A DNA stretch of 64,000 nt, from positions 32,001-96,000 of the forward strand of contig CAXXKT010000003.1 in assembly GCA_963662405.2 (NCBI GenBank), read 5' to 3'. Each line of letters begins with the position of its first letter. Within the stretch, counting starts at the first letter, position 1. Positions 25,143 through 64,000 of the stretch are shown one piece after another. Made by a program: the position numbers and the translations under genes. The stretch is from Syntrophales bacterium. GTDB lineage: Bacteria; Desulfobacterota; Syntrophia; Syntrophales; UBA2210. Below the pieces are notes generated by a model, which did no database searches, was not told the DNA's origin, and saw nothing but the letters and a program-made list of their open reading frames with translations.

Positions 25143-25745
25143 TCAAAGGAGGCGAAATGTGATGAAATAGTTGTAGCCGAGGTCGACGATGCCAGTTTTC
25201 TTGAATCCAAATCGACCAATCAGCTCCTCCGTATCTTTCGGCGACAGGCGCATATGCTGCGGTGGGCCAAAAGAGAGATCCTTTTTATGGCATTCGATAA
25301 TTGCCAATCGCCCATCCGGGTTCAGAACGCGGCGTATTTCTTCACACAGGACGTCTGCTCTCCCGGCAACGTCCGGTATGTGAAGGACGGTTGCTACAAG
25401 GCATACGTCGATACATCCTCTGCTGATCGGTAACTGCTTTGTGGCGTCGGCAATCATTGCGACGATATTTGTTATGCCTTCTGCATCGGATCGTTGCTTC
25501 AAGTGATCGATATTCGATTCGGATTTATCGAGGGCATAAACCAGACCTGGCGATCCGATTTCCTTCGATGCCCTCATTGCATAGTCCCCCGGCCCACAGC
25601 CTATGTCGAGGAAACGGTTCCCCTCCGAAAGCGCAAGCGCATTGAAAACAATGTCCGGGCTATGCATCAAAAAACTGCTTGACCCTCCTCTATGCCCCGG
25701 TTTCCCGAGATCGTCTCGATGGTTGCATTTGTATCTTTGTTTCAT
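25143..25745 (-). CDS. Class I SAM-dependent methyltransferase
   Basis: FLDIGCGPG, VYALD, RRVLNPDGRL. Confidence 0.9.
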   Translation of the reverse strand: MKQRYKCNHRDDLGKPGHRGGSSSFLMHSPDIVFNALALSEGNRFLDIGCGPGDYAMRASKEIGSPGLVYALDKSESNIDHLKQRSDAEGITNIVAMIADATKQLPISRGCIDVCLVATVLHIPDVAGRADVLCEEIRRVLNPDGRLAIIECHKKDLSFGPPQHMRLSPKDTEELIGRFGFKKTGIVDLGYNYFITFRLL

Positions 25746-25773
25746 CGATTTTACTCCCTGTTTCGGATTGTTA

Positions 25774-28700
25774 TTACAAGTAATGCAAAAAGGATTCGAT
25801 TTTCATCCGATCGTTTTCGTTCCTGTTTCCGTCAAAGGTTAAATTGAGAACAGGCTTGGAGCGGTCGTTTTCAAATCCTTTATGTAATATGCTCAATGAA
25901 ATTTGCGTATTCTCATACGTAGAGGAAACGGTGATAATGCCGTCGATTCCATTCAGGTCGCTCAACAGTTTAGCCTCCCTGTACCTGCCGAACGCTCCGG
26001 CATAGTACCCGATCGTTCTGTCCGCTATCGTAATAAGTGCTTCCACGTCGGCTTCAAAAGGACTCCTGTCTGTCAAAGAGTGAGATACGGCACCTATGTA
26101 AAGCTTATATTCGTCCAACCTCTTCTGCAGGATGTGTGTTTTATTATTATTTTGGTCCGCAAAGTCTCGCCACATGACCCACAGGTATTCGCTCAACGGC
26201 GCATAGATTATCCGGTGACCGATATCTTCGATGTTTCTTAAAGAAAAATCATTTAGAAAGTCGTTGAACAGGATGAAGGGTTCGCCGATGGCAAGGATCC
26301 TCTTGCCGTCTTTCATGGCTTCCGGTTCACGACGGATGTTTTCCGCTGTCTTTACAAGATCGTCAATCGCGAGGTCTCTGCTCCCGATCAGGTCGAGAAG
26401 TTTTTGTAAATACTTTTCCCGGTGACGTGCATGTGCGGATCTGATGAGATCTCCCGCCAGCAGGCCCAGACATATCGCCCTTGCGTGCTCCCGGGACGTG
26501 CACAGCGCATCTTCTGTGAATGGGGCGAAGATATCGGCACTCTTATGCCCCTCCGCATCCAGTTTCGCTCGCACGAAACGATTCACCTGCCCGTCGATTT
26601 CTGCACCTTCCGTTTGCGGGACGAAAAAGGTCACGTTGTCACCACGACGCTCTCTGTCGTTCAGTACCGTGAGGACATCCCCCAGAAGGGCTGTGACGGA
26701 GAAGTATTCATTCGTCATGGTATGCTTTCTGCCTGTATCGACGGAGGAGCGGTTTGACTCCGGCATAGCTCCGGTATTGATTCCTCTGCCCGCCAACATT
26801 TTCCCGAAGATGTGCGAATAAGGATACAGGTATGGTAAATAGAGTGTCGTTCCGGCATTCAATTTCGACAGATCGGTTTTGATGTTCACTTTTTTATGGG
26901 TAATGTCTTGTGTATATGCCGTCATATCATCGGCCTTTTCCGCGATTTCTTTGCTTAAGCTATTGACGAACGCCTCAATCCTGGTGATAACGCCCACATC
27001 GGAATAATGTTCATCCACCTCGATATTCAGATAGGGTTTCCCCTCCATCATTTCCCTGAAATAATGTGTTATCATTGAATCTGGACCGCAGCCGTGATGG
27101 GTCAGAAGAATCGCGTACAGATTGGGATGCCGACTGATAAGCTGTGCCGGCTCCAGTATGTGCTGGGCGAAGGGCCAATACATATTCGGGTGTTCCTGTG
27201 AGATATCTGATTCAGGAAGGTCGTAAAAGCCTAGAACTTTATATCCCATATCCATCAACTTGTCGGGTATTCCCATGTTCAGGACCGGATCGGCGATACC
27301 GTATATCTTTGAAATGATAATGAAGACTTTTTCATCGGGCTTTATTTGACTGATTGCATTCTTCCCGTGTTCTTTTACTCTTTTTTCAAACAAGTGAAAT
27401 GCCTCCATACCTTTTTGAAGGGCCGCGACCGTCTCTTTAGGACCCTTCCCGAGTTGTTTCCCCAGATGTGCAAAGCTCTTCATCATGAATTCGTTACCAA
27501 GATTGGATGCAATGGTCGGAGCCAGCAACTCTATTCCCTGAGACCGCAAGTCCATGGCCTGATTGAGCACCTTGAAAGCCAGTTGCATGTAGGGGCACCC
27601 GTAGTTCTTCCGTGACGACGATCCGGGATGGTCGACGGTGTACAGGTCCGGAAAAAATATATAGTCGACGTTCTTCCGGACCAACTCCGCTACATGACCG
27701 TTGATCAGTTTGACGGGGTAACAGGTCTCATCCAGAGAATATTCCTGAGCCCGTTTAATTGTTTCTTCATTCGTGGGATCGGACAGCAACACATTGAACC
27801 CCAGTTCTTTGAAGATCGTGTAAAACATGGGGAACATTCCGTACGTGAACAACGCTCGTGGTATGCCAACGGTCTTTTTCCCGTCGTCCAGCGAGCCGTC
27901 GTATCCTGTGAATATGAGTTCTTCTATCTCTTTATGAAATACATTCGTATGATTGATTTTCGATTCCAACCCTTTTTGTTTTTCAATAACAATTTCCTTG
28001 TGTTCGATATCGAACCCCTTGAATCCGGTTTTCCCCGACGCCATCTCTTCTTTTGCCAATAGCGCAACCCCGTATGCACCGGTGACACTGAAAAACGGCG
28101 GTACAGAGACATCTTTCCCGAGCAGTGCCTTGAAGGCGTTTACAACTCCTTGATTGTATGCAACGCCTCCCTGAAAAAAAATTCTGTTACCGATTTTCTT
28201 TTCTCCCACAACTCTGTTGAGATAATTCTTGACGACGGCATAGCAGAGACCCGAAGCGATATCCGGCAGTGTTGCTCTCCTCGCCAGATGCGCCGCTATG
28301 TCGGTTTCCATGAAAACCGTACACCGTTCCCCCAGATGAATAGGATTGTTACTGGTAAGAGCGATCGTGCTGAAATCATGTATCGGCATATCGAATTTCT
28401 GGGCCTGTTCTTCAATGAACGATCCGGTTCCCGCCGCGCAAACCTTATTCATCTGAAAATCCGTCACCATACCGTTTTTAAGGGCGATATATTTGGAATC
28501 TTGCCCGCCGATTTCAAGAATCGTATCTACGCTACTATCTATGGTAATTGCCGCTTTTGCCTGACTTGTAATTTCATCTATCACAACATCGGCCCCGACG
28601 AACTCGCCGATCAAATATCTGCCGGAACCCGTCGTGCCGACTCCGGCAATATTGGTTCCGGCGCCGCATTCCATTTTGATTTCATATAATCCCTGTTGCA

Positions 28701-29772
28701 CTGCTTTGACAGGATCTCCCTCGGTTCTCAAATACTTGAAGCAGATGATGGTATTATTCCTGTTTACAAGCACCAGATTCGTGCTTGTCGATCCGATATC
28801 GATACCCAGATAGTATGTCTGATCGTCGTTATCATGATCATCCGGGATCAAATCATGTTTATTCACACTGTCGTTTACCCCGAAAGACAGTAACCCGGGC
28901 AGTTGAATCCCGTCATTCTTTTCTTCGTAAAAATGTTTCGGATCTTCCGTGATACTTAGTAAGCTTTCGATATTTATTCTAATCTTCTCTTTGCGGGCTA
29001 TGGCAGCCGCTCCCAAAGCAGCGATAGTTCGGTAATGCTCGGCTACGACCAGTTCTCCTTCTTCCAGGTTCAATACTTCTTTCAGGGCATTGACGATCGC
29101 CCGGTTGTGCGCCACACCGCCTACAAACAATATCGGTTTATTTCTGGGGAGTTTTCCCATAACCGCTCCCCGATAGTTTTTGACCATCGCGTGGGCAAGC
29201 CCCAGCAGAATATCCTCGACCGGAACCCCTTTTTGCTGATGGTGGGTAATATCAGTCTTGGCAAATACGCTGCATCTGCCGGCGATTCTTGGTATGCATG
29301 CGCCCCTGCTCGCATAAGAAGCGTAGTCTTCCAATGTGAGATTCAACCGGGACACCTGTTTTTCCAAGAAAGAACCTGTGCCGGCGGAACAGGCTGAATT
29401 CATGGAAATCTTTATGCGCGACCTGTCCTGTCCGTTGAAATCGGTTATATATTTAGCACTTTGCCCGCCGATCTCGATGATCGATCCGATATCTTTGTTT
29501 GTTTTCGCACTGCCTTCGATGATCGCCGCAACTTCATTCGTATATGAGATCTTCCCGTCTTTGGCGAGAAACGTTCCTCCACTGCCCGTTACGGCCCCAA
29601 ACACTATTTCTTCTTTGTTATATTTCAATAAAATATCCTGGATTGATTTCCGTAAATTTTCTCTGATCTGTCCTTTATGCAGGATATAGGTGTGGTATCG
29701 AACAACATCGCCGACATCGATCAGTACCAGCTTGATCGATGAATATCCTATGTCAATTCCTAAGCTGTACAT
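25774..29772 (-). CDS. Fused acyl-CoA dehydratase activase (two BadF/BcrA-type ATPase domains + DUF2229-like domains)
   Basis: GIDIG twice, EIGGQ twice, CSAGTGSF/CAAGTGSF, RCSVFA/RCTVFM, VGIPRAL, CYPVK, GCPY, GCGPDS, IEVDEH; 1332 aa. Confidence 0.9.
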   Translation of the reverse strand: MYSLGIDIGYSSIKLVLIDVGDVVRYHTYILHKGQIRENLRKSIQDILLKYNKEEIVFGAVTGSGGTFLAKDGKISYTNEVAAIIEGSAKTNKDIGSIIEIGGQSAKYITDFNGQDRSRIKISMNSACSAGTGSFLEKQVSRLNLTLEDYASYASRGACIPRIAGRCSVFAKTDITHHQQKGVPVEDILLGLAHAMVKNYRGAVMGKLPRNKPILFVGGVAHNRAIVNALKEVLNLEEGELVVAEHYRTIAALGAAAIARKEKIRINIESLLSITEDPKHFYEEKNDGIQLPGLLSFGVNDSVNKHDLIPDDHDNDDQTYYLGIDIGSTSTNLVLVNRNNTIICFKYLRTEGDPVKAVQQGLYEIKMECGAGTNIAGVGTTGSGRYLIGEFVGADVVIDEITSQAKAAITIDSSVDTILEIGGQDSKYIALKNGMVTDFQMNKVCAAGTGSFIEEQAQKFDMPIHDFSTIALTSNNPIHLGERCTVFMETDIAAHLARRATLPDIASGLCYAVVKNYLNRVVGEKKIGNRIFFQGGVAYNQGVVNAFKALLGKDVSVPPFFSVTGAYGVALLAKEEMASGKTGFKGFDIEHKEIVIEKQKGLESKINHTNVFHKEIEELIFTGYDGSLDDGKKTVGIPRALFTYGMFPMFYTIFKELGFNVLLSDPTNEETIKRAQEYSLDETCYPVKLINGHVAELVRKNVDYIFFPDLYTVDHPGSSSRKNYGCPYMQLAFKVLNQAMDLRSQGIELLAPTIASNLGNEFMMKSFAHLGKQLGKGPKETVAALQKGMEAFHLFEKRVKEHGKNAISQIKPDEKVFIIISKIYGIADPVLNMGIPDKLMDMGYKVLGFYDLPESDISQEHPNMYWPFAQHILEPAQLISRHPNLYAILLTHHGCGPDSMITHYFREMMEGKPYLNIEVDEHYSDVGVITRIEAFVNSLSKEIAEKADDMTAYTQDITHKKVNIKTDLSKLNAGTTLYLPYLYPYSHIFGKMLAGRGINTGAMPESNRSSVDTGRKHTMTNEYFSVTALLGDVLTVLNDRERRGDNVTFFVPQTEGAEIDGQVNRFVRAKLDAEGHKSADIFAPFTEDALCTSREHARAICLGLLAGDLIRSAHARHREKYLQKLLDLIGSRDLAIDDLVKTAENIRREPEAMKDGKRILAIGEPFILFNDFLNDFSLRNIEDIGHRIIYAPLSEYLWVMWRDFADQNNNKTHILQKRLDEYKLYIGAVSHSLTDRSPFEADVEALITIADRTIGYYAGAFGRYREAKLLSDLNGIDGIITVSSTYENTQISLSILHKGFENDRSKPVLNLTFDGNRNENDRMKIESFLHYL

Positions 29773-29833
29773 CTTTTCTCCTCTTTCTTTTCCCGACTTT
29801 CTTTTTCATTTAGGTTAAAATGATTCGCATGCG

Positions 29834-31126
29834 TTAAAAACTATACCGTACGGCCGCATAGATATTCGTGTCGTTCTCGAATTGACCCAAAAACGTATGA
29901 GGTTCTTCTCCTGAAAAAATATTTGCCCCCGTTTCCAGTACCATGTTATCGGTATATTTATACCGTATGTTCGGACGAAGATAGGCATCCTGGTCACTGG
30001 GTGAATAATATGATGAAAAGGATAATTCCAAAGTCTGGTTCATCAGCAATTTCGTCAGTTGCAGCGTGATGACGTGTCTGTCGCGGTCCCGGGCCGGACC
30101 GCCGGACAGGTGTGCCGTGTAATTATCGTAATCAATCATATACTCGATGTAATATTGGAGGCTTGCGTTGAAGTCCTGTGCCAGATCCTGTGTATAGCCG
30201 ACGAGGTACCGCATTTCCGAGTTATTGATCAGTGGATTCGAGCCGCTTTCGTCGTCGACGGACTGATACCAGGCGTATTCGAGATTTCCGATTCCCGGAC
30301 CGACCCGTCCTCTGGCGCTGAGACCGTAGACGTTCAGATCGGGGAATATGGATATGCCCGATGGTGTCTGGCCGCTCGGCCGTTTCCAGAACCCATGGTA
30401 TCCGTAAACGGCCAATTCATAGTTGCTGATATTTTTATAGATGCGAAGGGCGATCTCTTCATCCCGGAACCAGTGATCCGGTCTATTGGCGGCGGCAATC
30501 GCATCCCTGCCAGCACATCTTCCCAGCCAGCCATTCCAGTATGAGACATATTCACCGATAATATACCGATCCGCGTCGAACTGCGGCGTGTACACCACGT
30601 CGATGTTGACCGGGCCCGTAAAAAAACTCACTTTCGCGGCGTCGGACGGAGCCTTGAGGTATTCCTTGTCCCGTCCGATGAAATATGATTGCCAGTCCTT
30701 GGGGAACATATCGTTGAGAAAAACAAGATCCCCCGTTCCCCAGGTCAGGACCTGGCGGCCGATTTTGATATCCATGAAATCGAACGGCCGTGAGAACATC
30801 CAGGCCTCACGGGTGTCATATTCACCTTCCTCCGTTATGCCGTCACCCCACACGTCACCCTTGTACTTGAACTCCGCCCAATCGGTGTAGGTGAAAAGTT
30901 CGGCCTGCAGCCGGGCCTCCATGACGGAAGCATCCTTTTCATACGGGTCATTCTGCGTGCGGCAGCCCGCCCGCAGCTCGAGGAATCCGTGTATCTCAAG
31001 AGGAGGGAGCAGATCCCCACAAGAATTTTCACCGGCTTCCGCAACGTGAACCGAAGGGGTGAAGAACACCAAGACAAGAAAGACTATAACGAGAAATAAC
31101 GTGCCGGGATTTTGAGGATTTTTCAT
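29834..31126 (-). CDS. Outer-membrane beta-barrel protein (DUF1302-like), triad 1
   Basis: Signal peptide, IGRQVLTWGTGD, GQFENDTN, C-terminal VRYSF. Confidence 0.75.
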   Translation of the reverse strand: MKNPQNPGTLFLVIVFLVLVFFTPSVHVAEAGENSCGDLLPPLEIHGFLELRAGCRTQNDPYEKDASVMEARLQAELFTYTDWAEFKYKGDVWGDGITEEGEYDTREAWMFSRPFDFMDIKIGRQVLTWGTGDLVFLNDMFPKDWQSYFIGRDKEYLKAPSDAAKVSFFTGPVNIDVVYTPQFDADRYIIGEYVSYWNGWLGRCAGRDAIAAANRPDHWFRDEEIALRIYKNISNYELAVYGYHGFWKRPSGQTPSGISIFPDLNVYGLSARGRVGPGIGNLEYAWYQSVDDESGSNPLINNSEMRYLVGYTQDLAQDFNASLQYYIEYMIDYDNYTAHLSGGPARDRDRHVITLQLTKLLMNQTLELSFSSYYSPSDQDAYLRPNIRYKYTDNMVLETGANIFSGEEPHTFLGQFENDTNIYAAVRYSF

Positions 31127-31956
31127 CGCATTGCATTCCGTGGGGGTCTTCTCAGATAGCGTTCCGTAAAAATCTCATCTCCGAGTCCGATATTATATCG
31201 GATATTGGAGAAGGTCATTTCCGTTGTACTGCCGCTTTCCAGATCCTTGGCAATCGATACGGTTACCGTGGGGTATATCACCCTCTTTCCGTTTTCCTCG
31301 GATTGAATTTCTTCGAGCTTTACCACTTCGATAACACGATAGAGCCTGTCGTCCTTTTTAAAAAATTCCATTTTCATCGGTATAAACGTCATCCTGTCGA
31401 TGCAGGCCGTATAGTATTCAAACTCCACGGTATCGGGATTTTTCGGAACGTTTTTAAGTACGTAAAAGGTATCCGTTTCCTTGATCAGTTCGTGAGAGTC
31501 TTCGGCGGGACTGCGGCCGGAGATATCTTCATACAGAAAATCCGATCCGACAAAACTGGTCCGCTTATCACTTGCGGCAATCCGTTTGACTAGGTCCAGA
31601 CCGGGCATATAGAGCCAACGGTCATCGTCTTTCTCGGCGGCGGCGTGCTTGTGTACCATAAACACCATCTTGCGCACGTCGGCGGGCGACCGAAAAAACG
31701 AGTAGTATTTCTGATCCTCGTCTCTATCGTCGCAGTTTTTCCGAAGCATGTTGAACTCTCTCATCCGTATCCGACCCTGCTTGTCCCGTATCACCAGGGT
31801 AACCGTGCCTTTGCCGTCCGCTCCCTGGTATAAAGACATGTGATTGGCCTTTCGTACGATTTCGTCCACCGTCGGTTCTCCCGCCTGTCCTTCTCCCCAC
31901 GCAACTCCCGCGAACAATATAAAGAACGTTACAATGATCATTCCCTTTGTTTTCAT
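31123..31956 (-). CDS. LolA-like 'outer membrane lipoprotein-sorting' protein, triad 1
   Basis: SPADVR, DDRWLYMPGLDLVKRI, FVGSDFLYEDI, IFTERYL; start at ATG 31956. Confidence 0.88.
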   Translation of the reverse strand: MKTKGMIIVTFFILFAGVAWGEGQAGEPTVDEIVRKANHMSLYQGADGKGTVTLVIRDKQGRIRMREFNMLRKNCDDRDEDQKYYSFFRSPADVRKMVFMVHKHAAAEKDDDRWLYMPGLDLVKRIAASDKRTSFVGSDFLYEDISGRSPAEDSHELIKETDTFYVLKNVPKNPDTVEFEYYTACIDRMTFIPMKMEFFKKDDRLYRVIEVVKLEEIQSEENGKRVIYPTVTVSIAKDLESGSTTEMTFSNIRYNIGLGDEIFTERYLRRPPRNAMR

Positions 31957-31978
31957 TTCATCACTCCTTTTCTTCAAC

Positions 31979-34666
31979 TCAACAGTCCTGTGCCGTGATC
32001 CGGCCTTGCGTTTCAGCCGGATGTGGTGCGGTGGCATGTGGCGTAACCTTCCCGAAAAACCACTGTTCCGCTACAGTCAATATTGCCGGCAGGGCCAGCA
32101 GCGTGATGATGCCGGAGAGCATCATAATCGCGAACAGCATCACGCCCATTGTCTTATAGGGTACCAGCGGCGCCACCGTCAGCGGCAGGAAGCCTATTGC
32201 TATTACCATTACGTTCCGGCTTATCGCCCGGGCCGGTTCATCGAACATCTTGTCGATTGCTGCTTTCCACGAACCGGTTTCAGTATATTTGCCGAGACCC
32301 CGTTGCAGGAAATGAATTGCAAAATCCACCGCCATGCCCAGTGCCAGAACCCCCAGAACCGCAATCGGCAGATCGTAATTTTTACCAACGATGCCGATGA
32401 TGCCGTAGATCATTGCAATGGTGATCGTCAACGGCACCATGCACAGCGCCCCCCAACGGAAAGAACGGAACAGAAAAGACATCATAAAGAAAACCACCAC
32501 AAAGCTACCGATCAACGATCTGAGCATCGTCGGGATCAATTTATCTTCCAGTACAAGATTGATGTAATGGAGACCGGCCCAGCGGTGGTTCAGTTCGACC
32601 GGAGGCGGAACTTTCCTCAAATAATCATCGACCGCCTTGACGGTGGCTTTTATGGCCTTGCTGTCGCCGGTATTCAACTGCATCCAGACATTGGCATTCA
32701 TGTAATCCGGGTCAACCATGTGCCACAGATCATGAGGACGGTGACCCTGTTGAAATTGCAGACAGCACTGGGCAACGCCCAGCAGCGTGTCCGGAATGCG
32801 GAAGTTTTCGGGCCTTCCATCAATCATTTCCTGATGGACCTTGCAGACCGCATCCGCAACGGATGTGGTCTTTCCAACCCATCCGCTTTCCTCCATATGG
32901 CGCTGCAATGTGGTCACGTACCTCAAAACCTCGGGACGTTTGAATACTTTCAGCTCCTCTTTCTTCACGCCGATGCAGTTTCTCAACTCGTCATACGCAT
33001 AGAAATCGTCATCGGAGGCATTCCCGGACCTTTGATCGATATGATCTTCTATCGAATTCAGAAGGTCTTCATACGTCCGGCTCTTCTCGGCCAGTCCCGG
33101 GATAACCCCCGCAATCTCCTTTGCCAGTTCCGGGGCATTCCTGAATTCCGCTTTTATCTTGTCGGCAGTAATTGCCAGACCCCGGGAAATTTCCTGCACA
33201 TCTTTGTCGTCGAATGTATCAGGTTTTTGACCTTCCAAGATCAAATAGGCCGTATAGGTTCCGTCGAGGTGCTTGTTCAAGGCAATATCGGCTTCACGGA
33301 TGGGGTGCCCTTTCGCAAAGCGTTTGGCATAGTTATCGTTGACCTGGATCTTGGTGGTTCCCCAGATTGCAACGGCAACCACGATTGCCAGAATCCAGAG
33401 AACCGGTTTTGCGTGTTTATAAGTGAGATCCCCAACTGCATGTAACATCTTGGCCATATGGCTCCGGGTATCTTTCCCCCGTTCATACATGCCGAAATTC
33501 TGCAATCTTTTTTCGGGGATCATCATGATATATGCGGGGACGAAAATCACGGTGTAAAGCCAGGCGATCACAACACCGATACTGAGGAAAGCGCCGAAGA
33601 TCTGAGCCGGCGGGATAGGTGTAAATATCAGCGAAGCAAAACCTGCGGCGGTGGTCAACGATGTATAAAAGATGGGAACAAAGAGGGTATCCATAACATC
33701 TCGTATGGTTTCTGTACGCCCTCTTTCTATCGTATAGACATCAAAAAAATCGGACAGGATGTGTATTGAGCTGACGGCGCCGATGCACATCAGAAAAATG
33801 GGGATCATTGAACTCAGGATGTGAATCTGGAATCCGAGGGCGATCATTAAACCCATGGTGGACATGACCGAAACCATCGCAATGATCATCGGCATGATTA
33901 CCAGACGCCATTTACGGAAAAACACCCACAACAGGAAAAAGATAACCGCCATGGCCAGTGGCGATCCGACAGCCATCTGGGAAAACATTTCCACCCCGAT
34001 AGCAACTTCGGCAACCGGCGCACCGGCGATATGATATTCTTCATCGCCGTCCATCTGTTCTATCTTTTTGTTCAATTCATTGCAGATGCGGTAACTCAGG
34101 TGCTTGTCCGTCAACGGCAGGTATATGCACATCACCGTACCATCTTTTGAAAACATCCTGCCCACGAGCATCTGGTTTGAAAATGCTTTTTCCCGAATGG
34201 CTCGGGCCTCCTCTCTGGTATCCGGCGGTTTGGACATGAGCCATTCGAACGTGATCTCTCCGGGCCTTCCCTGGCTCATATGATCTGCCAGCGACGGAGC
34301 AAGCATATCCGCCTCGATGACGCCGGAGAAACGATCGGGATGCTCTTCATCGGGCCAGCGAAGTGTCTTTGCAAATTCGGTCAGTTCATACACGCGCTGT
34401 AACGTCACCGGATTGAAAACGCCGTCCGGATCGTGTTTGTTCACGATTCCCAGCACGACGGTTTCACTGAGGGCGAACTGTCTTTTGCTCTCATTATGAA
34501 ATACGCGGTGGGGATCGTTTTTCGGAATCATGTTTTCAGGATCCGTATCGACCTCTGCCAGCGGGAAGAATGTACACATGGCAATGGTGAACAGCACCAT
34601 TACCAATGTGGCGATTTTGTAATGGTTGATTGAGAAATTGATTAACGCAGTTTTAAAACGTTTCAT
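31979..34666 (-). CDS. MMPL/RND-family transporter, triad 1
   Basis: VDTDPENM, two TM blocks with periplasmic loops, YTSLTTAAGF, LGMAVDFAIHF. Confidence 0.92.
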   Translation of the reverse strand: MKRFKTALINFSINHYKIATLVMVLFTIAMCTFFPLAEVDTDPENMIPKNDPHRVFHNESKRQFALSETVVLGIVNKHDPDGVFNPVTLQRVYELTEFAKTLRWPDEEHPDRFSGVIEADMLAPSLADHMSQGRPGEITFEWLMSKPPDTREEARAIREKAFSNQMLVGRMFSKDGTVMCIYLPLTDKHLSYRICNELNKKIEQMDGDEEYHIAGAPVAEVAIGVEMFSQMAVGSPLAMAVIFFLLWVFFRKWRLVIMPMIIAMVSVMSTMGLMIALGFQIHILSSMIPIFLMCIGAVSSIHILSDFFDVYTIERGRTETIRDVMDTLFVPIFYTSLTTAAGFASLIFTPIPPAQIFGAFLSIGVVIAWLYTVIFVPAYIMMIPEKRLQNFGMYERGKDTRSHMAKMLHAVGDLTYKHAKPVLWILAIVVAVAIWGTTKIQVNDNYAKRFAKGHPIREADIALNKHLDGTYTAYLILEGQKPDTFDDKDVQEISRGLAITADKIKAEFRNAPELAKEIAGVIPGLAEKSRTYEDLLNSIEDHIDQRSGNASDDDFYAYDELRNCIGVKKEELKVFKRPEVLRYVTTLQRHMEESGWVGKTTSVADAVCKVHQEMIDGRPENFRIPDTLLGVAQCCLQFQQGHRPHDLWHMVDPDYMNANVWMQLNTGDSKAIKATVKAVDDYLRKVPPPVELNHRWAGLHYINLVLEDKLIPTMLRSLIGSFVVVFFMMSFLFRSFRWGALCMVPLTITIAMIYGIIGIVGKNYDLPIAVLGVLALGMAVDFAIHFLQRGLGKYTETGSWKAAIDKMFDEPARAISRNVMVIAIGFLPLTVAPLVPYKTMGVMLFAIMMLSGIITLLALPAILTVAEQWFFGKVTPHATAPHPAETQGRITAQDC

Positions 34667-34691
34667 ATGTTTTACTCCGGCGCCCATAATA

Positions 34692-34706
34692 GTTAAGCAG
34701 CTTAAC
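34692..34706. promoter_or_regulatory. Putative MarR operator GTTAAGC-A-GCTTAAC
   Basis: Perfect 7-1-7 palindrome between marR and the MMPL start; a related site lies in the marR promoter. Confidence 0.75.
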
Positions 34707-34722
34707 CTTTAAGGCAAAAAAA

Positions 34723-35199: not shown

Positions 35200-35200
35200 G

Positions 35201-35235
35201 GACAATATAGTACAGGAGCTTAACTATATTGTCAA
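35201..35235 (-). promoter_or_regulatory. Sigma70 promoter of marR inside an inverted repeat/operator
   Basis: TTGACA-17 nt-TACTAT, 7 nt before the ATG; inverted repeat GACAATATAGT...ACTATATTGTC (35201-35233) whose core carries the GTTAAGC half-site. Confidence 0.75.
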
Positions 35236-37697: not shown

Positions 37698-37880
37698 GCA
37701 CTACTCCTTCACTGTGTTCTGTCTTGCCTTGGAAGTATGGGCTCTCTTTTCCTCGTTTCCACTTTTAAAGAGGAGCGTCAGGACCGGAAAGGGTACGCTA
37801 CGGTTGCTTTTTCGGGCAATGGATGCACGTAGTCGCGGCGCCTCATGCACGAAGGTATGTTCCCGGTCGCTGTTCTCCTT

Positions 37881-40875: not shown

Positions 40876-40889
40876 ACGATCACCAACCC

Positions 40890-48651: not shown

Positions 48652-48665
48652 TGTCTGTCGGTTTG

Positions 48666-56467: not shown

Positions 56468-56468
56468 C

Positions 56469-56831
56469 CTACCGTTCCTCCTCTCCTTCGGGTATATAGA
56501 CCACCTTGCCGTCCTGGAGCCGGTAGGCCGTTCCCAGTCTCGTTCCCTGCCCCTGGGCCATCTCCTTTGTCAGTTTCTGGACCTTGATCTCTTTTCCTTT
56601 TTTGCTGATAATCTCCATCTTTCCCGGTTGATTGGGATTCTTGATCATGGTCAGTTCATCGGCGGAGAATATCTCGTGAATGTGGTAGGCGCTGACCATG
56701 GCCACCAGCAGGCCGACGGCAAAGACCATGGCGACATCGAACAGATTTGCCACACCGCTCATGGGATCGTCCTGATGTATGGGACTTTTCCTGCGGCGGT
56801 TCTTTCGTTTATCTCTTCGCGTAAGTTTCAT
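56469..56831 (-). CDS. DUF2149 protein (HmuV-like)
   Basis: DPMSGVANLFDVAMVFAVGL, KNP, GTRLGTAYRLQDGKVVYIP. Confidence 0.9.
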   Translation of the reverse strand: MKLTRRDKRKNRRRKSPIHQDDPMSGVANLFDVAMVFAVGLLVAMVSAYHIHEIFSADELTMIKNPNQPGKMEIISKKGKEIKVQKLTKEMAQGQGTRLGTAYRLQDGKVVYIPEGEEER

Positions 56832-56839
56832 GTGTATCC

Positions 56840-57562
56840 TCAGTTCATTGAGAGCTCGATAATATTTTGTCCTTCCTCTTGTCCTGAAGGGGACACATCA
56901 TTTTCGATATGTCCCATGATCAGATCGACGATGTACTCCATGTTTTGCATATCTTCGCCGTACCAGCGCTCTCTGACGACCGAGATGATGTAGGCGAGTA
57001 CCCCCACCGCCAGTCCCGCTACCGTCGTTCCGAAGGCGAGGATCAGACAGTTCGCCATCTGTTCCAGGTCCCCCTGCGACAGCGAGAGGAGCGCCGGCCC
57101 CATGGGGATGAGGGTCCCCATCAGTCCCAGCATCGGTCCGACCCTGATCATGATCCGTGTTTTTTCCAGTGTTGCGTGGGTGTCATTTTCATATGACTGC
57201 AGGATCTTTTCCGTCCGTACGTCGAGATTGCTGATCCCCCTGGCGATCTGGCGGGACAGGTCTCTGAAGAAGTTCTCCACTGTCAGGGGGAGGGACGAAA
57301 GGCCTTCCGTGTACTGTGCAATGCGCTCTGCGGCCCCGTCGGCGCGCGACTGTAACAGGTCGCGGGCGACCTCCTCGGCGAGTCTTTCGCTTTTTTCATC
57401 CGCCGCATGAACCTGCTTTCGGCGAAACACGGCTTCCGAGGCGAAACCTCCCAGGACGAAGAGGGCCGCAACGACCAGTAACAGCAACACCACTATTACC
57501 GGGTAGAGGAGGGCGTTCATGATCAGATAGAGCCCTGCCTGCATGACATCCAAGACGTTCAT
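56840..57562 (-). CDS. MotA/TolQ/ExbB proton-channel family protein (HmuU-like)
   Basis: LLYPV, RVGPMLGLMGTLIPMGPAL, AFGTTVAGL, RWYGED. Confidence 0.9.
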   Translation of the reverse strand: MNVLDVMQAGLYLIMNALLYPVIVVLLLLVVAALFVLGGFASEAVFRRKQVHAADEKSERLAEEVARDLLQSRADGAAERIAQYTEGLSSLPLTVENFFRDLSRQIARGISNLDVRTEKILQSYENDTHATLEKTRIMIRVGPMLGLMGTLIPMGPALLSLSQGDLEQMANCLILAFGTTVAGLAVGVLAYIISVVRERWYGEDMQNMEYIVDLIMGHIENDVSPSGQEEGQNIIELSMN

Positions 57563-57567
57563 TTTTC

Positions 57568-58320
57568 TCACACCTCGTTTCTGATTTGTTTGCTGCGTGC
57601 AGTTTCCCTGCGGTTCTTTATAAAGCCCAGGCAAAAGATGAGGCCCCCGGTACAGAGCAGGATGACCGAATCTCTCAGAGACACCGCTGCGGCGGCGGAG
57701 ATCCCTCTCACCGCGAGGAGTGCCTTGGCCTTCGAATAAACGGGGACGACGACGATGGCCACGGCAAAATAGAGACCAACCATGGTCATGAAAAAGCCGA
57801 GGAGGACCGGTCCCCGTGTTCTCTCCGTGTCACGTCTCATCCGGTGCCGGGCAACCAGGGCGGCACCGGCAATCCCCGCCGTGAAAAGAACCGCCATTCC
57901 CCCCCCGACCTGCAGGGGATCCATACCGGTGAGGGCCACGCAGATGGAACAGCTCAGGAGCATGGCGGAAAGGCACACAGGACAGGGGAGCATCAGGAGA
58001 TATCCGGCCCTCGATCTCCCCTGGGGGTACTCGTAAAAGGCGGATTTCATGGTATATAATCCCCATGCCATCAGGCCGAGAGAGAGAAAGAAATGAACCA
58101 TGACTCCGTGAAACATGAATTTCTGAAAGAACTGAAAATAATCGAGGGGGTTGGCAATCCTGATGCCAACCCCCAACAGGAAGGCGATGACACCGTACAG
58201 CAGGGCAAGCGCGACAATGCCGGATGTCCTGATATTCATGGAACCGGCCACCATGCCGGCCTTGCCGGCGAATATCAGTACGGTGAAAACAATCCCGAGG
58301 GCCCAAAAGTACGTAATCAT
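57568..58320 (-). CDS. DUF2162 membrane protein (HmuT-like)
   Basis: IFAGKAG, GVMVH, LPCPVC, LGFFM, GLYF. Confidence 0.82.
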   Translation of the reverse strand: MITYFWALGIVFTVLIFAGKAGMVAGSMNIRTSGIVALALLYGVIAFLLGVGIRIANPLDYFQFFQKFMFHGVMVHFFLSLGLMAWGLYTMKSAFYEYPQGRSRAGYLLMLPCPVCLSAMLLSCSICVALTGMDPLQVGGGMAVLFTAGIAGAALVARHRMRRDTERTRGPVLLGFFMTMVGLYFAVAIVVVPVYSKAKALLAVRGISAAAAVSLRDSVILLCTGGLIFCLGFIKNRRETARSKQIRNEV

Positions 58321-58329
58321 CGCTGCTCC

Positions 58330-60393
58330 TTAAAAGGTGTATTTCACACCGGCCATGAAGGATGCCGGCGGATTGTTGGTCGTGTAGTATTCCTTGTAAT
58401 CCTCGTCGGTGAGATTGTTCACTTCACCGAACACCTCAAGCCCTTCACGGATCTCACGGGAGATCTTCAGACCGACCACCTGATAGGCATCGAGTTTTTT
58501 CGAGTCCGTATTTTCCAGATCTCCATAGCGTTCGCCCACGTTGGTGAGAAAGACACCCAGGGTAAAGAGATCCGGGTTATCGTACGTAACGCCGATCTTG
58601 GTCATGTGACGGGGGGTATAGGAAAGATAATTCCCCTCGACGGTTCGATCTTCCTCGTACTCCTCAATCGTTGATACGTTGTAGGTATGATTGATGAATG
58701 TCGACCACTGATTACTGATTTTGTATTCGAGATTGGCCTCGACACCGTAGATCTCAACCCTCCCCAGGTTGATCGTCTGGATGACCGCCATCCCGTCATC
58801 CGGTGAAAACCATGAAGGAACTTCCGATGCCGCGAGTGTCTTCTCTCCCAGAAAATCCTTGATACTGCTCTGGTAGAAGGTCATGCTCACGCACAGCTTT
58901 TTGTGGGGGGTGGCATCGAATCCGACGTCGTACGACCATTCCATCCGCTCCGGCTCCAGATCCGGGTTCGCCAGATCGAACCGGGTGGAACCGTGAGGTC
59001 CGGATTTATAGAGGTCATAGAGGGAGGGTGCCTTGAACCCCGTACCGAAAGATGCCCGGAACTTGATCGCCGGATTGAGCTTGTAGCTCACGCCTATCTT
59101 GGGTGAAAGGGCCTGGTCGGTGTTGTCGGGATAGATAATGGTTCGTGCCGTCGATGTCGTCGAATCGTAGAAGTCGCCATCATGGTTCTTCCAGTAATCG
59201 TAGCGCAGACCGGCATTGACGATGAGCCGATTCCCCAGAAAACCGATCTCGTCGTTGACGAACAGTGCATAGAGATCCTGCTCTCCGCTGAAATTGCGGT
59301 CACCCGTGCTGTATGCATATTCGCATGTGCATTTCGCCCATTTCAGATCACTCCCCGCCGTGAGTTTGTGGCCGGCGAGCTCGGTGCTGACCTGGAACAT
59401 GACGCCGTATTCATCCTTGGGGATAGTCGAATCGTAATAGTAGGTGTCGAATTTGCCCGACGTGGAGTTATACGTGTCGGCGTTTGATTCGTATCCCTCG
59501 TCGTAGTAGTAGGCCTTGACATTAAAGTCGGTCTTTTTCCCCAGGGGGACCCCCCAGCTGAGCATGTATTCGTCGGTCTTCTGCTCGCCGTCATACTGGG
59601 TTGTCGTGGCGCTCAGAGAGTCTTCCAGGAGGTGTGCGTAGTCCAGACGCAGGATCGATTCCCCCAGCCATATGTCCCCTCCGATGGAGATGTTGGTCAG
59701 TTCATTCTCGGGTTTCTTGTAATAGTTCTTCCACGATGAACCCTCGTAGTACTCGTACCCCTGTGTCCGTTTATGTTCAACCGAGGCACGAACGCTGTAG
59801 TCGTCGGTCCCGGCATTCACGCTGGCACTCCCCATATAGGTATCAAAGGAGCCGCCCTGCATGGTGACGGTCCCGGAGACCCCCTCCTTGGGATGTTTGG
59901 TGATGATATTGATCACACCGCCCATGGCGCTGGAACCGTAGAGGGCGGACGAGGCCCCCCGCACGATCTCGATCCGTTCGATATTCTCCAGTGATAACGT
60001 GTTCCAGAGCGTGACCGAACTGCCGTATGTCCTGTTGATGGGGATGCCGTCCTTGAGCACCAGAACCCTGCCGCTGTCTCCCGTCCCGCGCATGTACACG
60101 GTGGTATGACTGGTCGTGTTGCACAGTCCCTTGTTGCGACGGACCTGCAGACCCACGGCCTCATTCAGGACCTCGTCCACCGTCGAGACAGGCATCTTCT
60201 CAATCTCTTCAGCCGTTATAACGGTAACACTGACCGGGAGATCCTCCACGGCGGTTTCGGTCCGCGTAGCGGTGACCACGGTTTTCTGCATCTCCACCGA
60301 TGGAGGGCTGCTCTCGGCCGCGGATGCTTGAACCGCGGGAACAAACCAAAAAACTGTGAGGAACAGGGCCAATTTGAAACGAAGCTTTTTCAC
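58330..60393 (-). CDS. TonB-dependent receptor
   Basis: VVTATRT, IERIEIVRGASSALYGSSAMGGVINIIT, GLRYD, FKAP, NPDLEPE, NNLTDEDY, C-terminal YTF. Confidence 0.96.
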   Translation of the reverse strand: MKKLRFKLALFLTVFWFVPAVQASAAESSPPSVEMQKTVVTATRTETAVEDLPVSVTVITAEEIEKMPVSTVDEVLNEAVGLQVRRNKGLCNTTSHTTVYMRGTGDSGRVLVLKDGIPINRTYGSSVTLWNTLSLENIERIEIVRGASSALYGSSAMGGVINIITKHPKEGVSGTVTMQGGSFDTYMGSASVNAGTDDYSVRASVEHKRTQGYEYYEGSSWKNYYKKPENELTNISIGGDIWLGESILRLDYAHLLEDSLSATTTQYDGEQKTDEYMLSWGVPLGKKTDFNVKAYYYDEGYESNADTYNSTSGKFDTYYYDSTIPKDEYGVMFQVSTELAGHKLTAGSDLKWAKCTCEYAYSTGDRNFSGEQDLYALFVNDEIGFLGNRLIVNAGLRYDYWKNHDGDFYDSTTSTARTIIYPDNTDQALSPKIGVSYKLNPAIKFRASFGTGFKAPSLYDLYKSGPHGSTRFDLANPDLEPERMEWSYDVGFDATPHKKLCVSMTFYQSSIKDFLGEKTLAASEVPSWFSPDDGMAVIQTINLGRVEIYGVEANLEYKISNQWSTFINHTYNVSTIEEYEEDRTVEGNYLSYTPRHMTKIGVTYDNPDLFTLGVFLTNVGERYGDLENTDSKKLDAYQVVGLKISREIREGLEVFGEVNNLTDEDYKEYYTTNNPPASFMAGVKYTF

Positions 60394-60595: not shown

Positions 60596-61414
60596 TCACG
60601 GCTTGACCTCAAAGGTCAGCGTTGCCTGGTAGCTGTACTGGTCCGCCATCTGGAGATCGGGATAGGGGAGCTTGTGGTTGACGAATATCATCCATATTCC
60701 CGGCTGGAGGAGCCTGATCTTGGCAACCCCGTTGTGGTATGCGGAGGCCCAGGCGGTGTAGGCGAATACGTCCGTCTCATTGCTAAACCCCATGTACGTG
60801 GCATATACCATCACCGATTCATCGAGGGGTTTCCCGTTGTGGAGTACCTGCAGCGGGAGTATGTCGTTGGTCCGCAGTGCACCGGGATCCTTCAGGGGCA
60901 CGATCTCAAGGCCGTGGCCGAGCACTGTGGAAAACCCCTTTCCTCTCGCCGTTCCGTCAACATTGACGACGGCCTTACAGAAATTTTGCGAATATCTGAT
61001 GCTTCCCTTGATCGTTTCGCCCTTCAACTCTTTCTTCGATTTGAATTGATACCCCTTGTCGGTAAAACCCCCGAAGTTCCCTTTACTCTCCATGACGACA
61101 AGGTAAGTCCCTCCCGCGAGGTCTTCTTTCGATTCAAACTGAACCTGGGAATATTCCCCCTTGCCCAAGACACGAGGGCCTGTTTTCCCCTCTCCTCCAT
61201 CGGGCCCCAGGGTATACAGTCTTGCCATCTTATCGTTGGCAAAAAAACTGTGTCCCATGGGGTAGTTGTGCCCGTAGGCGATGTGGAACCTGATCGATTC
61301 ACTTGCCTTGGGGGTGTACTTGTTCGCATTGATCCACGGATGGCACGCATGGGCGGCGGTGGACAATAAAAAGACCACGCCGACGGCAGCCATCCCCCAT
61401 GTCAGTTTCTTCAT
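60596..61414 (-). CDS. DUF4198-family periplasmic protein
   Basis: Signal peptide then CHPWI, YGHNYP, GLEIVPL, VLHNGKPL, PGIW, ATLTFEV. Confidence 0.82.
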   Translation of the reverse strand: MKKLTWGMAAVGVVFLLSTAAHACHPWINANKYTPKASESIRFHIAYGHNYPMGHSFFANDKMARLYTLGPDGGEGKTGPRVLGKGEYSQVQFESKEDLAGGTYLVVMESKGNFGGFTDKGYQFKSKKELKGETIKGSIRYSQNFCKAVVNVDGTARGKGFSTVLGHGLEIVPLKDPGALRTNDILPLQVLHNGKPLDESVMVYATYMGFSNETDVFAYTAWASAYHNGVAKIRLLQPGIWMIFVNHKLPYPDLQMADQYSYQATLTFEVKP

Positions 61415-61436
61415 ACTCGTTCTCCTCTCTATTGTT

Positions 61437-62696
61437 TTAATGGAACACCCTTGTGATTTTTTGTGCCGTTCTTTGCTTCTCCCCGGTCCGCTCCTCGATC
61501 TGAGCCAGCGCCCTCCGGGCCGCATCCCGCTGCCCAGTGAAACGGGATGCTTGGGTCAATGCCTCCTTCGCTTCGCGCCACCGGTGCAGTTTCAGCGCAC
61601 AGTACCCCAGGTACAGTGCCGCACTTCCGTTTTCCGGCATTAGGTGGAGACAGTGCTGAAAGGCGTCGTAAGCATTCCGGTATTCTTCGCGGTTATACTC
61701 AACGCTCCCCAGCAGGTGCCACAGGTGGGCGGAGGATTGCTTCTCGATCGCCCGGATCAATACTTCCGCGGCTTTGTCCGATCGATGTGCGGCGAGGTAG
61801 GTCGATACAACCCGCTCATAATCGTCAAAGGAGGAATCCCACTGCAGTATCCGTTCGTACTGAACCGCCGCTTTCAAGGGGACACCGCCAAGCCGGTACA
61901 GGTTGCCCAGTCTGAGCACGTCCTCACGCCCCGCCTCCGTCAGATTAAGATACAACTCGTATGCGGCGGCCGCCTTGTCATAGACCCGATCCTCGATGTA
62001 GAGCTGTGTCATCCGTTTCAACCAGCGCGGGTGGTCTCCGCCCCGCGCAAGAAGCTGTCTGAGTACCGTCATTGCATCTTCGTGTTTTCCCAGTTTTCCA
62101 TACACGTCGAGAAGGGCTTCGCACCAATCGGTTCGTATCTCTTTCACATCGGTAGAGCAGATCCGTTCGAGACAGGAGAGTGCCTCTTCGGGCCTGCCGT
62201 CTCTGATACGGCAGACGGCGGTCTGATAGAGCAGATCCGGTTTTTCCTCCGCCGTCAGGATATATGCCTTGTGAAACGAGTCTCCGGCCTTTCCGAATTG
62301 TTTCAGGTCGTAGGCAACCTTTCCCCTGTTGAGCCAGAGGTCGGCATCGGCGTCGTACCGGGCAATCGCCTCCTCGTAATAGGACAGGGCTTCATTCCTC
62401 CGACCGGCCAGGGCCGAGGCGTTACCCAGGGTAAAGAAGATCAGATAATGGGTCTTATCCCGCTTCCCGGATAGAAAATGCAGCAGCATCTCCTGGACCT
62501 CGGTGTATTTTTGGGCCGTCATGGCCTGACGTGCCTGGGTCAGGATCCATTGTTCCGAAGGGGTCGGGGACGAACCCGCGAACGATATGACCGGTGAAGG
62601 CATCAGTATCGCTGACAGGCAGATCACCAGAGCCGCCGCGAAGGGTTTTGCCATGCCACACCATGCATATCGGGAGAAGGGGCGCTGACGGTTCAT
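61437..62696 (-). CDS. Tetratricopeptide-repeat protein (TonB-system associated)
   Basis: Signal peptide and repeated TPR-like helical motifs (LWLNRG, LWHLLG, LYLG). Confidence 0.85.
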   Translation of the reverse strand: MNRQRPFSRYAWCGMAKPFAAALVICLSAILMPSPVISFAGSSPTPSEQWILTQARQAMTAQKYTEVQEMLLHFLSGKRDKTHYLIFFTLGNASALAGRRNEALSYYEEAIARYDADADLWLNRGKVAYDLKQFGKAGDSFHKAYILTAEEKPDLLYQTAVCRIRDGRPEEALSCLERICSTDVKEIRTDWCEALLDVYGKLGKHEDAMTVLRQLLARGGDHPRWLKRMTQLYIEDRVYDKAAAAYELYLNLTEAGREDVLRLGNLYRLGGVPLKAAVQYERILQWDSSFDDYERVVSTYLAAHRSDKAAEVLIRAIEKQSSAHLWHLLGSVEYNREEYRNAYDAFQHCLHLMPENGSAALYLGYCALKLHRWREAKEALTQASRFTGQRDAARRALAQIEERTGEKQRTAQKITRVFH

Positions 62697-63406
62697 CCGG
62701 CATCCTCCAGACGAAAAACGATACTGGTCGTTACCCGTGTGGTGACGGGCCGTCCGCGCAGAAGGCCCGGCTCGAAACGCCAGGTGGTGAGTGCCTCAAG
62801 GACATTCCTGTCGAACACGCCAGGTGGATCTGCTCCCATAATCTTTATGTTCCGAACCGCCCCGTTGGTATCCACCAGAAATGTGACATTGACCTCTCCG
62901 GAGATGTTGAGCCGCCTGGCGCGGTATGGGTATGCCGGCGGTGTTTTGGCGATAGTCACAGGGACATGATCCACCTCGGTTTCGTTGTAGACTGCCCTCT
63001 CGCGGACCGTGACATTGTTCGGTCGGTCGCTGTCTGGGAACGGGAGACTCGGACTGGCGATGGGACGAGGGGTGATGTCGATATGAACCGTTTCGACGGG
63101 GAGATGCGGGAGCGTCGCCCCCTTGCTACGCAACGGTATCACCAGATCTTCAGGGACGGTCATTTCTTGTCTTTCCGGGGGCCGAACCACATCGCGGGGC
63201 TTTTCAGGTGTCGGGAGAGGGGATTCCTCGGGGAAAGAGATCGTATCAATGAATCGGAAACCTTCTGCCACGTCATTCCCGAGAGGTGTCGGTGTCTTCT
63301 GCGCCATCATAAAATAGGGCAGCACAATAAAAAGCAGTGCATTAATCAGTAAGGCGATACCCGAAATCGAAAGGTTCTGTCGGTATGATCGTTCCATCGT
63401 GATCAT
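62693..63406 (-). CDS. tonB: Energy transducer TonB
   Basis: N-terminal TM, Pro-rich linker, PAYPYRARR, FLVDTNG, VFD, WRFEP. Confidence 0.92.
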   Translation of the reverse strand: MITMERSYRQNLSISGIALLINALLFIVLPYFMMAQKTPTPLGNDVAEGFRFIDTISFPEESPLPTPEKPRDVVRPPERQEMTVPEDLVIPLRSKGATLPHLPVETVHIDITPRPIASPSLPFPDSDRPNNVTVRERAVYNETEVDHVPVTIAKTPPAYPYRARRLNISGEVNVTFLVDTNGAVRNIKIMGADPPGVFDRNVLEALTTWRFEPGLLRGRPVTTRVTTSIVFRLEDAG

Positions 63407-63822
63407 CGGCCCTCCGGCCGCTTAGCGGCGATACTGACATCGGAGGAGCCGGCCAAGCGACACTGATCCATAACATCAATAACCACACCGGTGTGACTGT
63501 CACGATCAGCAATAATGACGGTTTCTCCCTCTGGGTTTTCGGCCAGTTCCTTTTCGACATAGGCGCGTACCATGCGGATATCGATCTGTTTCTTGTTCAT
63601 GAAGATCTGTCTGTTGTCGTCGATGGCAATGAAAATCGCTCCTTTCTCCCTGATCTCCGCCGTTTCTGCCATCGGTCGTTGCACATCAACGCCGGCCTCC
63701 CGGACAAAACTGGTCGTGACCATGAAAAAGATCAGGAGGAGAAAAACCAGGTCGATCAACGGCGCCATGTTGATCTCGTCACTGTACTGGGCGCTTTTGA
63801 GGGATTTGCGTGTACGAATCAT
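63403..63822 (-). CDS. exbD: Biopolymer transport protein ExbD
   Basis: INMAPLIDLVFLLLIFFMVTTSF, IIADR, VMDQCRLAG; ATG overlaps the exbB stop (TGATG). Confidence 0.95.
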   Translation of the reverse strand: MIRTRKSLKSAQYSDEINMAPLIDLVFLLLIFFMVTTSFVREAGVDVQRPMAETAEIREKGAIFIAIDDNRQIFMNKKQIDIRMVRAYVEKELAENPEGETVIIADRDSHTGVVIDVMDQCRLAGSSDVSIAAKRPEGR

Positions 63823-64000
63823 CAGAGGCACCTCTGCACGGCCAGAATGGTTTCATCCAGGCGGTTGTCCAGTTTACTGGCATGTTGCTGTATCAGGCGG
63901 GCCATAAAAAGACCCGGGATGCCGACCAAAAGCCCGCTCTGTGTGGTTATCAGTGCTTCGGAGATACCCGCCGCCAGTGCTTTTGCATTGGCTGTCCCGA
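63822..64000 (-). CDS. exbB: ExbB/MotA-family protein, C-terminal part (5' end outside the window)
   Basis: Manual translation GTANAKALAAGISEALITTQSGLLVGIPGLF...AVQRCL*. Confidence 0.88.
   Translation of the reverse strand, partial: GTANAKALAAGISEALITTQSGLLVGIPGLFMARLIQQHASKLDNRLDETILAVQRCL

Follow-up and report, generated by a model that had tools for sequence, protein, structure and literature searches.

A module of the hmu/BtuS type with heme iron as candidate target in a mosaic region of a Syntrophales genome

Composition and conservation of the core module

The window, i.e. the whole stretch of DNA analysed here, comprises 64,000 nt of a Syntrophales bacterium (G000:C3:32001-96000), the genome of which is 3.8 Mb in size and 100% complete. 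Every long open reading frame (ORF) between positions 25143 and 64000 is located on the minus strand. Judged by its predicted proteins, the segment at 52292-60393 is a core module of the hmuRSTUV/BtuS type. It codes for a TonB-dependent receptor (58330-60393), a DUF2162 protein with six transmembrane helices (HmuT-like, 57568-58320), a MotA/ExbB-family protein (HmuU-like, 56840-57634), a DUF2149 protein with one transmembrane helix and a near-invariant Asp32 (HmuV-like, 56469-56831) and an HmuS/BtuS-like CobN-like protein of 1391 aa with a signal peptide and a C-terminal anchor (52292-56467). The assignment of DUF2162, MotA and DUF2149 to hmuT, hmuU and hmuV is our presumption from gene type and position. 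In a preliminary description of the region, the genes named at 25143-64000 were all correctly listed, as ORF and profile scans confirmed, but the three that make the core hmuT/U/V-like had been left unnamed.

Our preferred explanation, which we consider probable on balance, is that the region is a mosaic. The conserved core lies in one same-strand run with feoAAB, the gene of a DtxR-family regulator and a motor of the TonB2 type, and would import heme and free its iron in the periplasm for Feo; the MarR-MMPL-activase and MFS-MarR blocks downstream would be cassettes under separate control. Import followed by periplasmic metal stripping, as proposed before, thus appears to be the best reading of the hmu-like core.

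CobN-like matches were found in 106 of 401 genomes of the phylum, and approximately 37 of these matches reach the anchored C-terminus. Twenty of the approximately 37 genomes, chosen for long contigs, yielded together with locus L004 a set of 21 anchored-CobN neighbourhoods of 21-40 kb each, with a downstream reach as short as 2 kb in G406. MotA and DUF2149 are present in all 21 and the TonB receptor in 19, while DUF2162 was detected in 16 by BLAST and in 19 by clustering. A metagenome set of 80 CobN-like loci, which measure 2-24 kb and comprise anchored as well as soluble types, contains DUF2149 in 50 and MotA in 48 cases. No match to HmuY was obtained among the scanned ORFs of the window and its flank.

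Comparison of DUF2149 with ExbD resulted in an hhalign probability of 1%, and no PDB match under E 0.1 was found; the two share only an Asp in a transmembrane helix. Since a coupling to an ion motor similar to that of the TonB D-box could be imagined after PMC10907165, the conserved VKGYEM tail of the CobN-like protein was modelled in complex with two copies of DUF2149, which scored 0.17 compared to a mark of 0.32. A G[YF]E[ML]-type motif before the anchor (52292-52450) recurs in anchored CobN-like proteins, with Gly1345 present in 53 of 53.

The CobN-like gene is followed after 80 bp by a gene for a PepSY_TM protein (50673-52211, minus strand), which we take to be a possible membrane reductase from the role of its family. 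The protein is weakly similar to PDB entry 7abw. PepSY is absent beside the core in all 21 related neighbourhoods (BLAST, phmmer).

Motifs, fold and phylogeny of the CobN-like protein

The CobN-like protein matches PF02514 with 1152 bits and scores below the NCBIfam cut-offs for CobN. A hydrophobic N-terminus (residues 1-27) and a C-terminal helix (1357-1387) were identified by hydropathy, indicating an exported and anchored protein. Both features are unlike the cytoplasmic CobN, and no AAA+ gene, the partner in CobNST, was found in the run. The best sequence match in the PDB is HmuS (9d26); the region of the methionine-rich insertion, a feature of the HmuS family, is located between the two domains that align. 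A template-free model of the head/neck part (pLDDT 90) has a TM-score of 0.72 to heme-bound HmuS, compared to 0.59 for CobN and 0.42 for ChlH.

The motif HFGTHG is located at residues 564-569, and its His568 is the equivalent of HmuS His538. The motif LSLDHxxEFMGG, which contains His1209 and Glu1212, is not present in the protein (LDNDDYFQYMGG); its DH was found in none of 26 clade members, and Asp occupies the position of HmuS His1209. The residues aligned to HmuS Met79 and His254 are Lys90 and Phe273. His89 is found one position and His275 two positions from these, at the ends of the equivalent strands. Both histidines are conserved in 26 of 26 clade sequences, some of which are near-duplicates; of 21 anchored proteins encoded in the 20 phylum loci, none has the two together. 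In a tree calculated without true HmuS, the deep branches of which are unresolved, the window protein falls into a separate clade (57-86% identity, support 1.0). Because Asp is found at the position of His1209, and Met79 and His254 are not kept, the protein falls, on its predicted residues, outside the HmuS family in its present definition; it is a protein of the BtuS/hmu kind that would work like hmu.

The lack of His1209 could also be taken as a sign of a non-catalytic, tetrapyrrole-binding subunit that passes intact heme to an ion-driven importer formed by DUF2162, MotA and DUF2149. MotA and DUF2149 are indeed the tightest partners, the core has no ABC permease, HmuT has been speculated to move heme (PMC10100974), and a btuS1 btuS2 mutant of Bacteroides fragilis still dechelated heme (PMC6460266). 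We consider this quite improbable, since the protein keeps the equivalent of HmuS His538, a residue reported as essential for turnover (PMC12583661), the FeoAB linkage fits free periplasmic Fe(II) and the host encodes AhbD.

A literature search returned no description of the close clade, which may be listed in supplements of the HmuS papers (e.g. Dataset EV4, Table S5). A DNA search of 251 genomes of the order of G364 found G364 alone, and a protein search of 151 genomes of the family of G436, with two to four candidates scored per genome, found the close clade in G436 alone. A first metagenome scan yielded no locus and a scan of genome contigs yielded one. Close-clade CobN-like genes occur as tandem paralogs of two subtypes in L004:9965-18389, L094 and P0002/P0021. 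At L110:9707-15976 and L119:9986-16320, archaeal-looking anchored CobN-like genes are followed by feoA-feoB, with neither DUF2149 nor MotA nearby.

TonB-dependent receptor and TonB2-type motor

The receptor carries His96 in the plug and His467 between FKAP and NPDL. This corresponds to the pattern of heme receptors, described with two His and FRAP/NPNL (PMC3832793). Plug and loop His are both present in 5 of 5 orthologous receptors (the window copy and four others) and in none of 35 other receptors. TIGR01785 is the best receptor model with 237 bits (cut-off 316.85), compared to 206.8 bits for the B12 model. Based on the receptor histidines and the clade-specific His pair of the enzyme, heme iron would be the likeliest target of the core.

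Genes for a TPR protein, TonB, ExbD and the end of ExbB (61437-64000, minus strand) form the distal part of a motor operon of the Vibrio TonB2 type. Beyond the window (C3 96001-107361), the same strand continues with the rest of exbB, a ttpC-like long exbB and DUF3450, followed by genes for FeoC-like, DUF2325, porin, DUF4198 and NikL-like proteins, a split feoB, two feoA and a DtxR-family regulator. The six-gene order, with DUF3450 first and TPR last, is that of Vibrio TonB2 (ttpB-ttpC-exbB-exbD-tonB-ttpD; PMC6957404). While the Vibrio operon has a Fur box, the operon found here has a weak DtxR-type box, with receptor and core behind. A hydrophobic ORF of 27 codons with a good ribosome-binding site is located between this weak operator and DUF3450 (L001 ~4910-4993, minus strand).

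feo genes, DtxR-family regulator and operators

The regulator contains the sequences MEDYL and DACKMEH, and its best PDB matches are SloR and MntR. The mark of an Fe-sensing DtxR/IdeR protein is a Met10/Cys102-type site. One tblastn match to the regulator was obtained in the genome, and a search of the genome for Fur found none. The feoB gene is split by a frameshift at L001:11336-11349 into a 243 aa GTPase piece and a membrane piece; a second, shorter feoB is located at G000:C1:2783816-2785522.

Five sites, located upstream of the regulator gene and of the feoA genes, served to build the operator matrix, one loose training site having been dropped earlier. The feoA-type operators are found at C3 106343/106362, 106720/106739 and 107342, with a weak one at C3 99051. 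Two tandem pairs with a spacing of 19 bp lie at 41336-41477, upstream of the gene for the membrane protein TM145. The site at 41439 ranks third genome-wide, which makes it the best non-training site, and fifth when an AT-rich background is used. With this background, five tandem 19-bp pairs pass, three with training sites and two before TM145. The feoA leaders at L093:4450-4580 and L103:2945-3110 have a DtxR-like box followed by a stretch that is conserved between them; no Rfam match at gathering score was obtained.

Comparison with riboswitch-associated relatives

In 13 of the 15 distant loci that were scanned, the module is directly preceded by a cobalamin riboswitch. Among 20 phylum loci, 13 carry CbiZ, in most cases as a fusion with a BtuF-like domain, and 7 carry CbiK. 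Operons of this kind are mentioned as B12-riboswitch hmu-like operons in PMC10100974. The window module shares with them, and with the BtuS family (Rodionov 2003 as cited in PMC6460266), the same core, a CobN-type DD.FQY site and related receptors. It differs in the lack of a riboswitch and of BtuF-CbiZ, in its His pairs and in the feo neighbourhood. No riboswitch was detected in the window, L001, L003, L004 or 12 further close-clade loci; upstream DNA is available for four close-clade loci (window, L004, L097, L102). Neither BtuF-CbiZ nor cbi genes are adjacent to the window core. The genome has five cobalamin riboswitches, all away from the core, and a separate riboswitch-receptor-BtuF/CbiZ locus on contig C2. 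The stretch G000:C2:230644-237500 holds a receptor, two riboswitches and a fusion of BtuF and CbiZ whose N-terminus is signal-like, with no CobN-like core and no evident permease. Next to close-clade modules, feoA was found in L103, L099 and L097.

The core could be imagined to salvage cobalt or corrinoids (or Co-porphyrin) like these relatives, the riboswitch being merely lost. This would fit the frequencies of riboswitch, CbiZ and CbiK given above, the DDYFQY site of CobN type and a receptor whose sister group consists of riboswitch-type receptors. The copy in G436, at 84% the closest, is moreover found in a riboswitch-rich region with a CbiZ gene adjoining on the opposite strand, and a search of the genome of the window for CbiK found none. 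We nevertheless regard this explanation as unlikely, since the locus has neither riboswitch nor CbiZ, a B12 locus exists elsewhere in the genome, receptor and enzyme carry clade-specific His pairs, and the context consists of feo and DtxR-family genes. The corrinoid substrate suggested in the preliminary description hence suits the relatives, but not the window copy with its separate riboswitch locus.

Several observations weigh against the import and demetallation of heme under iron control. The residues that define HmuS (Met79, His254, His1209/Glu1212) are not kept, and the site reads DNDDYFQY, which is CobN-like. The receptor stays under the TIGR01785 cut-off, and the sister group of its clade (0.994) comprises five receptors of riboswitch-type loci, which makes a cobalt ligand possible; the receptor adjoining the core in L095 is of another type. 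In G436, the closest copy lies among nine B12 riboswitches, has lost its upstream genes and has no operator box. The TonB operon is preceded by a weak box (C3 99051) that ranks 87-202 genome-wide, and no matrix box was found before the receptor. L097 and L102 have no upstream box scoring 9 or more, L102 having a two-mismatch pattern match only. Other single high-scoring sites are mostly coding, and validation of the motif on other iron genes failed. The regulator is closer to SloR/MntR than to DtxR in sequence, which makes Mn sensing possible. The feoB gene is split, and the same letters were found in one X2 contig (depth 4.8), probably from the same sample. Finally, L097 and L099 are near-identical and not independent.

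Six scanned stretches in G436 (L075-L082, C1:6.00-6.16 Mb) contain nine cobalamin riboswitches. They also harbour many receptors, O-methyltransferases, activases, soluble CobN-like genes and a NifH/nitrogenase-like fusion (L075:1701-3944).

Mosaic structure and downstream cassettes

The run had been described as approximately 39 kb of uninterrupted minus-strand genes. The common strand was confirmed, and it extends for 11 kb beyond the window, up to the DtxR-family regulator at approximately 75,340 in continued window numbering. The run is, however, broken up by gaps of 250-470 bp, in which separate palindromes resembling operators are found, and by a decayed gene copy at 40095-40433. The G + C content of third codon positions (GC3) is 0.71-0.75 in the core and the feo genes, 0.47-0.58 in the triads and the TM145/NikL-like genes and 0.76 in the left flank. 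The drop from core and feo genes to triads and TM145/NikL-like genes indicates a mosaic. The CobN-like gene is absent from all seven genomes of the same genus and is therefore accessory; G003 has only regulator-feoB-porin. Nearest homologs are labelled Desulfosarcina, Desulfobacterium and Deltaproteobacteria.

A gene for a periplasmic DUF4198 protein (60596-61525) lies between motor and core. Downstream of the core and PepSY_TM genes, likewise on the minus strand, follow genes for a Peripla_BP_2 binding protein, a MetA-pathway barrel and a NifX-like protein (47629-50312). The binding protein, for which no PDB relative was found, was previously noted as Cys-rich; with 6 Cys in 340 aa it is only mildly so. 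Next are DUF4405, an O-methyltransferase, two class I methyltransferases and a transglutaminase-like protein (43634-47427), the run containing four S-adenosylmethionine (SAM) methyltransferases in total. An MFS-MarR149 unit (41692-43398) has its own palindrome at 43382, which differs from the MarR160 and feoA-type operators. The segment at 40095-41327 codes for TM145, for which an Atlas search gave hypothetical clusters only, and a NikL-like protein, and holds the decayed binding-protein remnant with stops (40095-40433). Triad 2 (35328-39940) comprises a LolA-like protein, a DUF1302-like barrel and MMPL789. The MarR160 cassette (25143-35235) comprises MarR, MMPL902, a LolA-like protein, a barrel, a fused activase/dehydratase and a methyltransferase; its operators are located at 34692 and 35210. 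Scans for promoters and terminators gave values around shuffle levels and were set aside except for the site before MarR160. From the operators and palindromes we infer at least three control systems in the run.

It had further been proposed that all modules co-occur as a single island that imports a metal complex, removes the metal, then modifies and exports the ligand. A single 39-kb pipeline, with methylation or reduction and export of the free ligand, could be suspected from the common strand and from the position of triad 2 behind the top non-training feoA-type box. A triad 2 homolog lies between a receptor and feoAB in G146, a MarR160 triad follows a TonB2 motor in G328, and G436 has 43-70% homologs of much of the cargo in receptor-rich regions. 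We consider it very unlikely. MMPL, LolA, barrel, activase, MarR, transglutaminase, binding protein, NifX-like protein and PepSY were found in none of the 21 anchored-CobN neighbourhoods (BLAST, phmmer), in which matches of cargo type are limited to one MFS and three methyltransferases (one bzaC-like, two weak). MMPL, LolA, MarR and PepSY are likewise absent from the 80 metagenome loci, three of which have short activase-family matches. Conversely, the anchored core was found in none of 15 MMPL902 and none of six activase neighbourhoods. Together with the separate operators and the GC3 mosaic, this leaves the modify-export half and the 39-kb pathway as a whole unsupported.

The MarR160 cassette is a real, mobile unit. 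Its palindrome is found before MarR160 and before MMPL902, in the same places in G328, G231, G235 and G436 and on the MMPL side in G433. The operator is thus conserved in genomes without an adjacent anchored CobN and travels alone. MMPL902-type proteins occur in 46 of 400 other phylum genomes; the 15 neighbourhoods contain LolA in 15, a barrel in 14, MarR160 in four, the methyltransferase in three and a receptor in two cases. The activase type was found in six of 320 genomes. In G341 (L202), the six genes of 25143-35205 are all present and arranged differently, G328 (L203) and G145 (L204) have activase and methyltransferase with MarR, and two other activases lie by receptors. The cassette likely handles some hydrophobic compound. 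The triads share barrel, LolA-like protein and MMPL with HAE3/MMPL and Pseudomonas DUF1302/DUF1329/RND systems (bioRxiv 10.1101/2020.07.04.188060), to which weak DUF1302/DUF1329 matches were obtained. They differ in the lack of a BNR protein and in the attached MarR, activase and methyltransferase. Transport direction and substrate of the Pseudomonas sets are unsettled according to that source.

Non-co-occurrence of the modules is what a hotspot of unrelated insertions would produce. A fully random origin is not in line with the homologs of cargo beside TonB and Feo genes in G328, G146, G436 and G364: the cargo is drawn to metal-uptake neighbourhoods and untied to the CobN-like step. MMPL789-type proteins occur in six of 400 genomes, and the closest of this sample is that of G146. 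The binding protein lies before feoAB in G364, while its neighbours in G328 are DUF4198 and a receptor; the MarR160 triad of G328 directly follows a motor of the TonB2 type, and the cargo homologs of G436 are scattered. Triad 2 may share iron control by its predicted operator and could export porphyrin, whereas the other cassettes probably take no part in the heme-iron route.

Nickel coenzyme F430 from methanogen partners had also been suggested as the substrate, with reference to Ni/Co-associated neighbours. A syntrophic life is possible, as a search of the genome for dsrA found none, one partial clade member (P0022) is labelled Methanophagaceae, and a DUF1007-NicO pair is located at 21148-22651. 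This pair is, however, divided from the run by a plus-strand chemoreceptor gene, and no F430-specific feature was found. DUF4198 and NikL-like genes lie inside feo operons here and in G364, and a NikL-like gene also does in G146, so that they are no markers of Ni or Co. F430 is therefore a highly improbable substrate.

Proposed route and relation to known systems

At low Fe(II), the DtxR-family repressor would be released from the operators that precede TM145, the two feoA genes and the regulator gene itself, and weakly from that of the TonB operon. The TonB2 motor would then drive heme through the two-histidine receptor. Heme is predicted to bind in the head/neck cleft at His89/His275 and to be demetallated in the central cleft at His568, the equivalent of HmuS His538. 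Demetallation may be aided by DUF2162/MotA/DUF2149 and reduction may be provided by the adjacent PepSY_TM protein, before Fe(II) would enter via FeoB. AhbD is encoded in the genome with a score over cut-off, which suggests that the host makes its own heme and that iron, not porphyrin, is the likely gain. B. fragilis requires FeoAB for the use of heme iron (PMC6460266), and BtuS-like proteins of Methanosarcina barkeri respond to the iron source (PMC10846266). The role of HmuT/U/V is described as open (PMC13227078).

Receptor, CobN-like protein, DUF2162, MotA/ExbB and DUF2149 are found together in hmuYRSTUV of Bacteroidota, as they are here. HmuS of B. thetaiotaomicron (PDB 9d26; PMC12583661) and the window protein are alike in export, anchoring, the His538 motif, the head/neck fold and the link to Feo. 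The conversion of heme to protoporphyrin IX in the HmuS family depends on a reductant. In contrast to hmuYRSTUV, the window core lacks HmuY, has the order R-T-U-V-S, lies in a DtxR-family instead of a Fur context and belongs to a host encoding AhbD. In the enzyme, Met79, His254 and His1209 are not kept, and the clade-specific His89/His275 are found instead. It is also found outside Bacteroidota, to which the cited part of PMC10100974 confines the intact operon. In the papers cited here, HmuS is the only de-chelatase shown directly, and most relatives cannot be annotated according to its authors (PMC12583661, PMC10100974).

As a tentative proposal, possible but short of probable, the locus may represent a second system for the demetallation of heme, with a separate evolutionary origin. 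In anaerobic deltaproteobacteria-type bacteria, a salvage module under a B12 riboswitch would have been rewired to an iron regulon and gained His ligands for heme in receptor and enzyme, and would strip iron without Met79, His254 and His1209.

Taken together, the locus offers a matched natural comparison of two clades with the same core, one linked to riboswitch and CbiZ, the other linked to iron and bearing the His pairs. It is now testable which residues determine the specificity of exported CobN-like proteins for metal and tetrapyrrole, and whether His1209 is required. The findings suggest that anaerobes outside the gut may recycle iron from the heme of dead cells.

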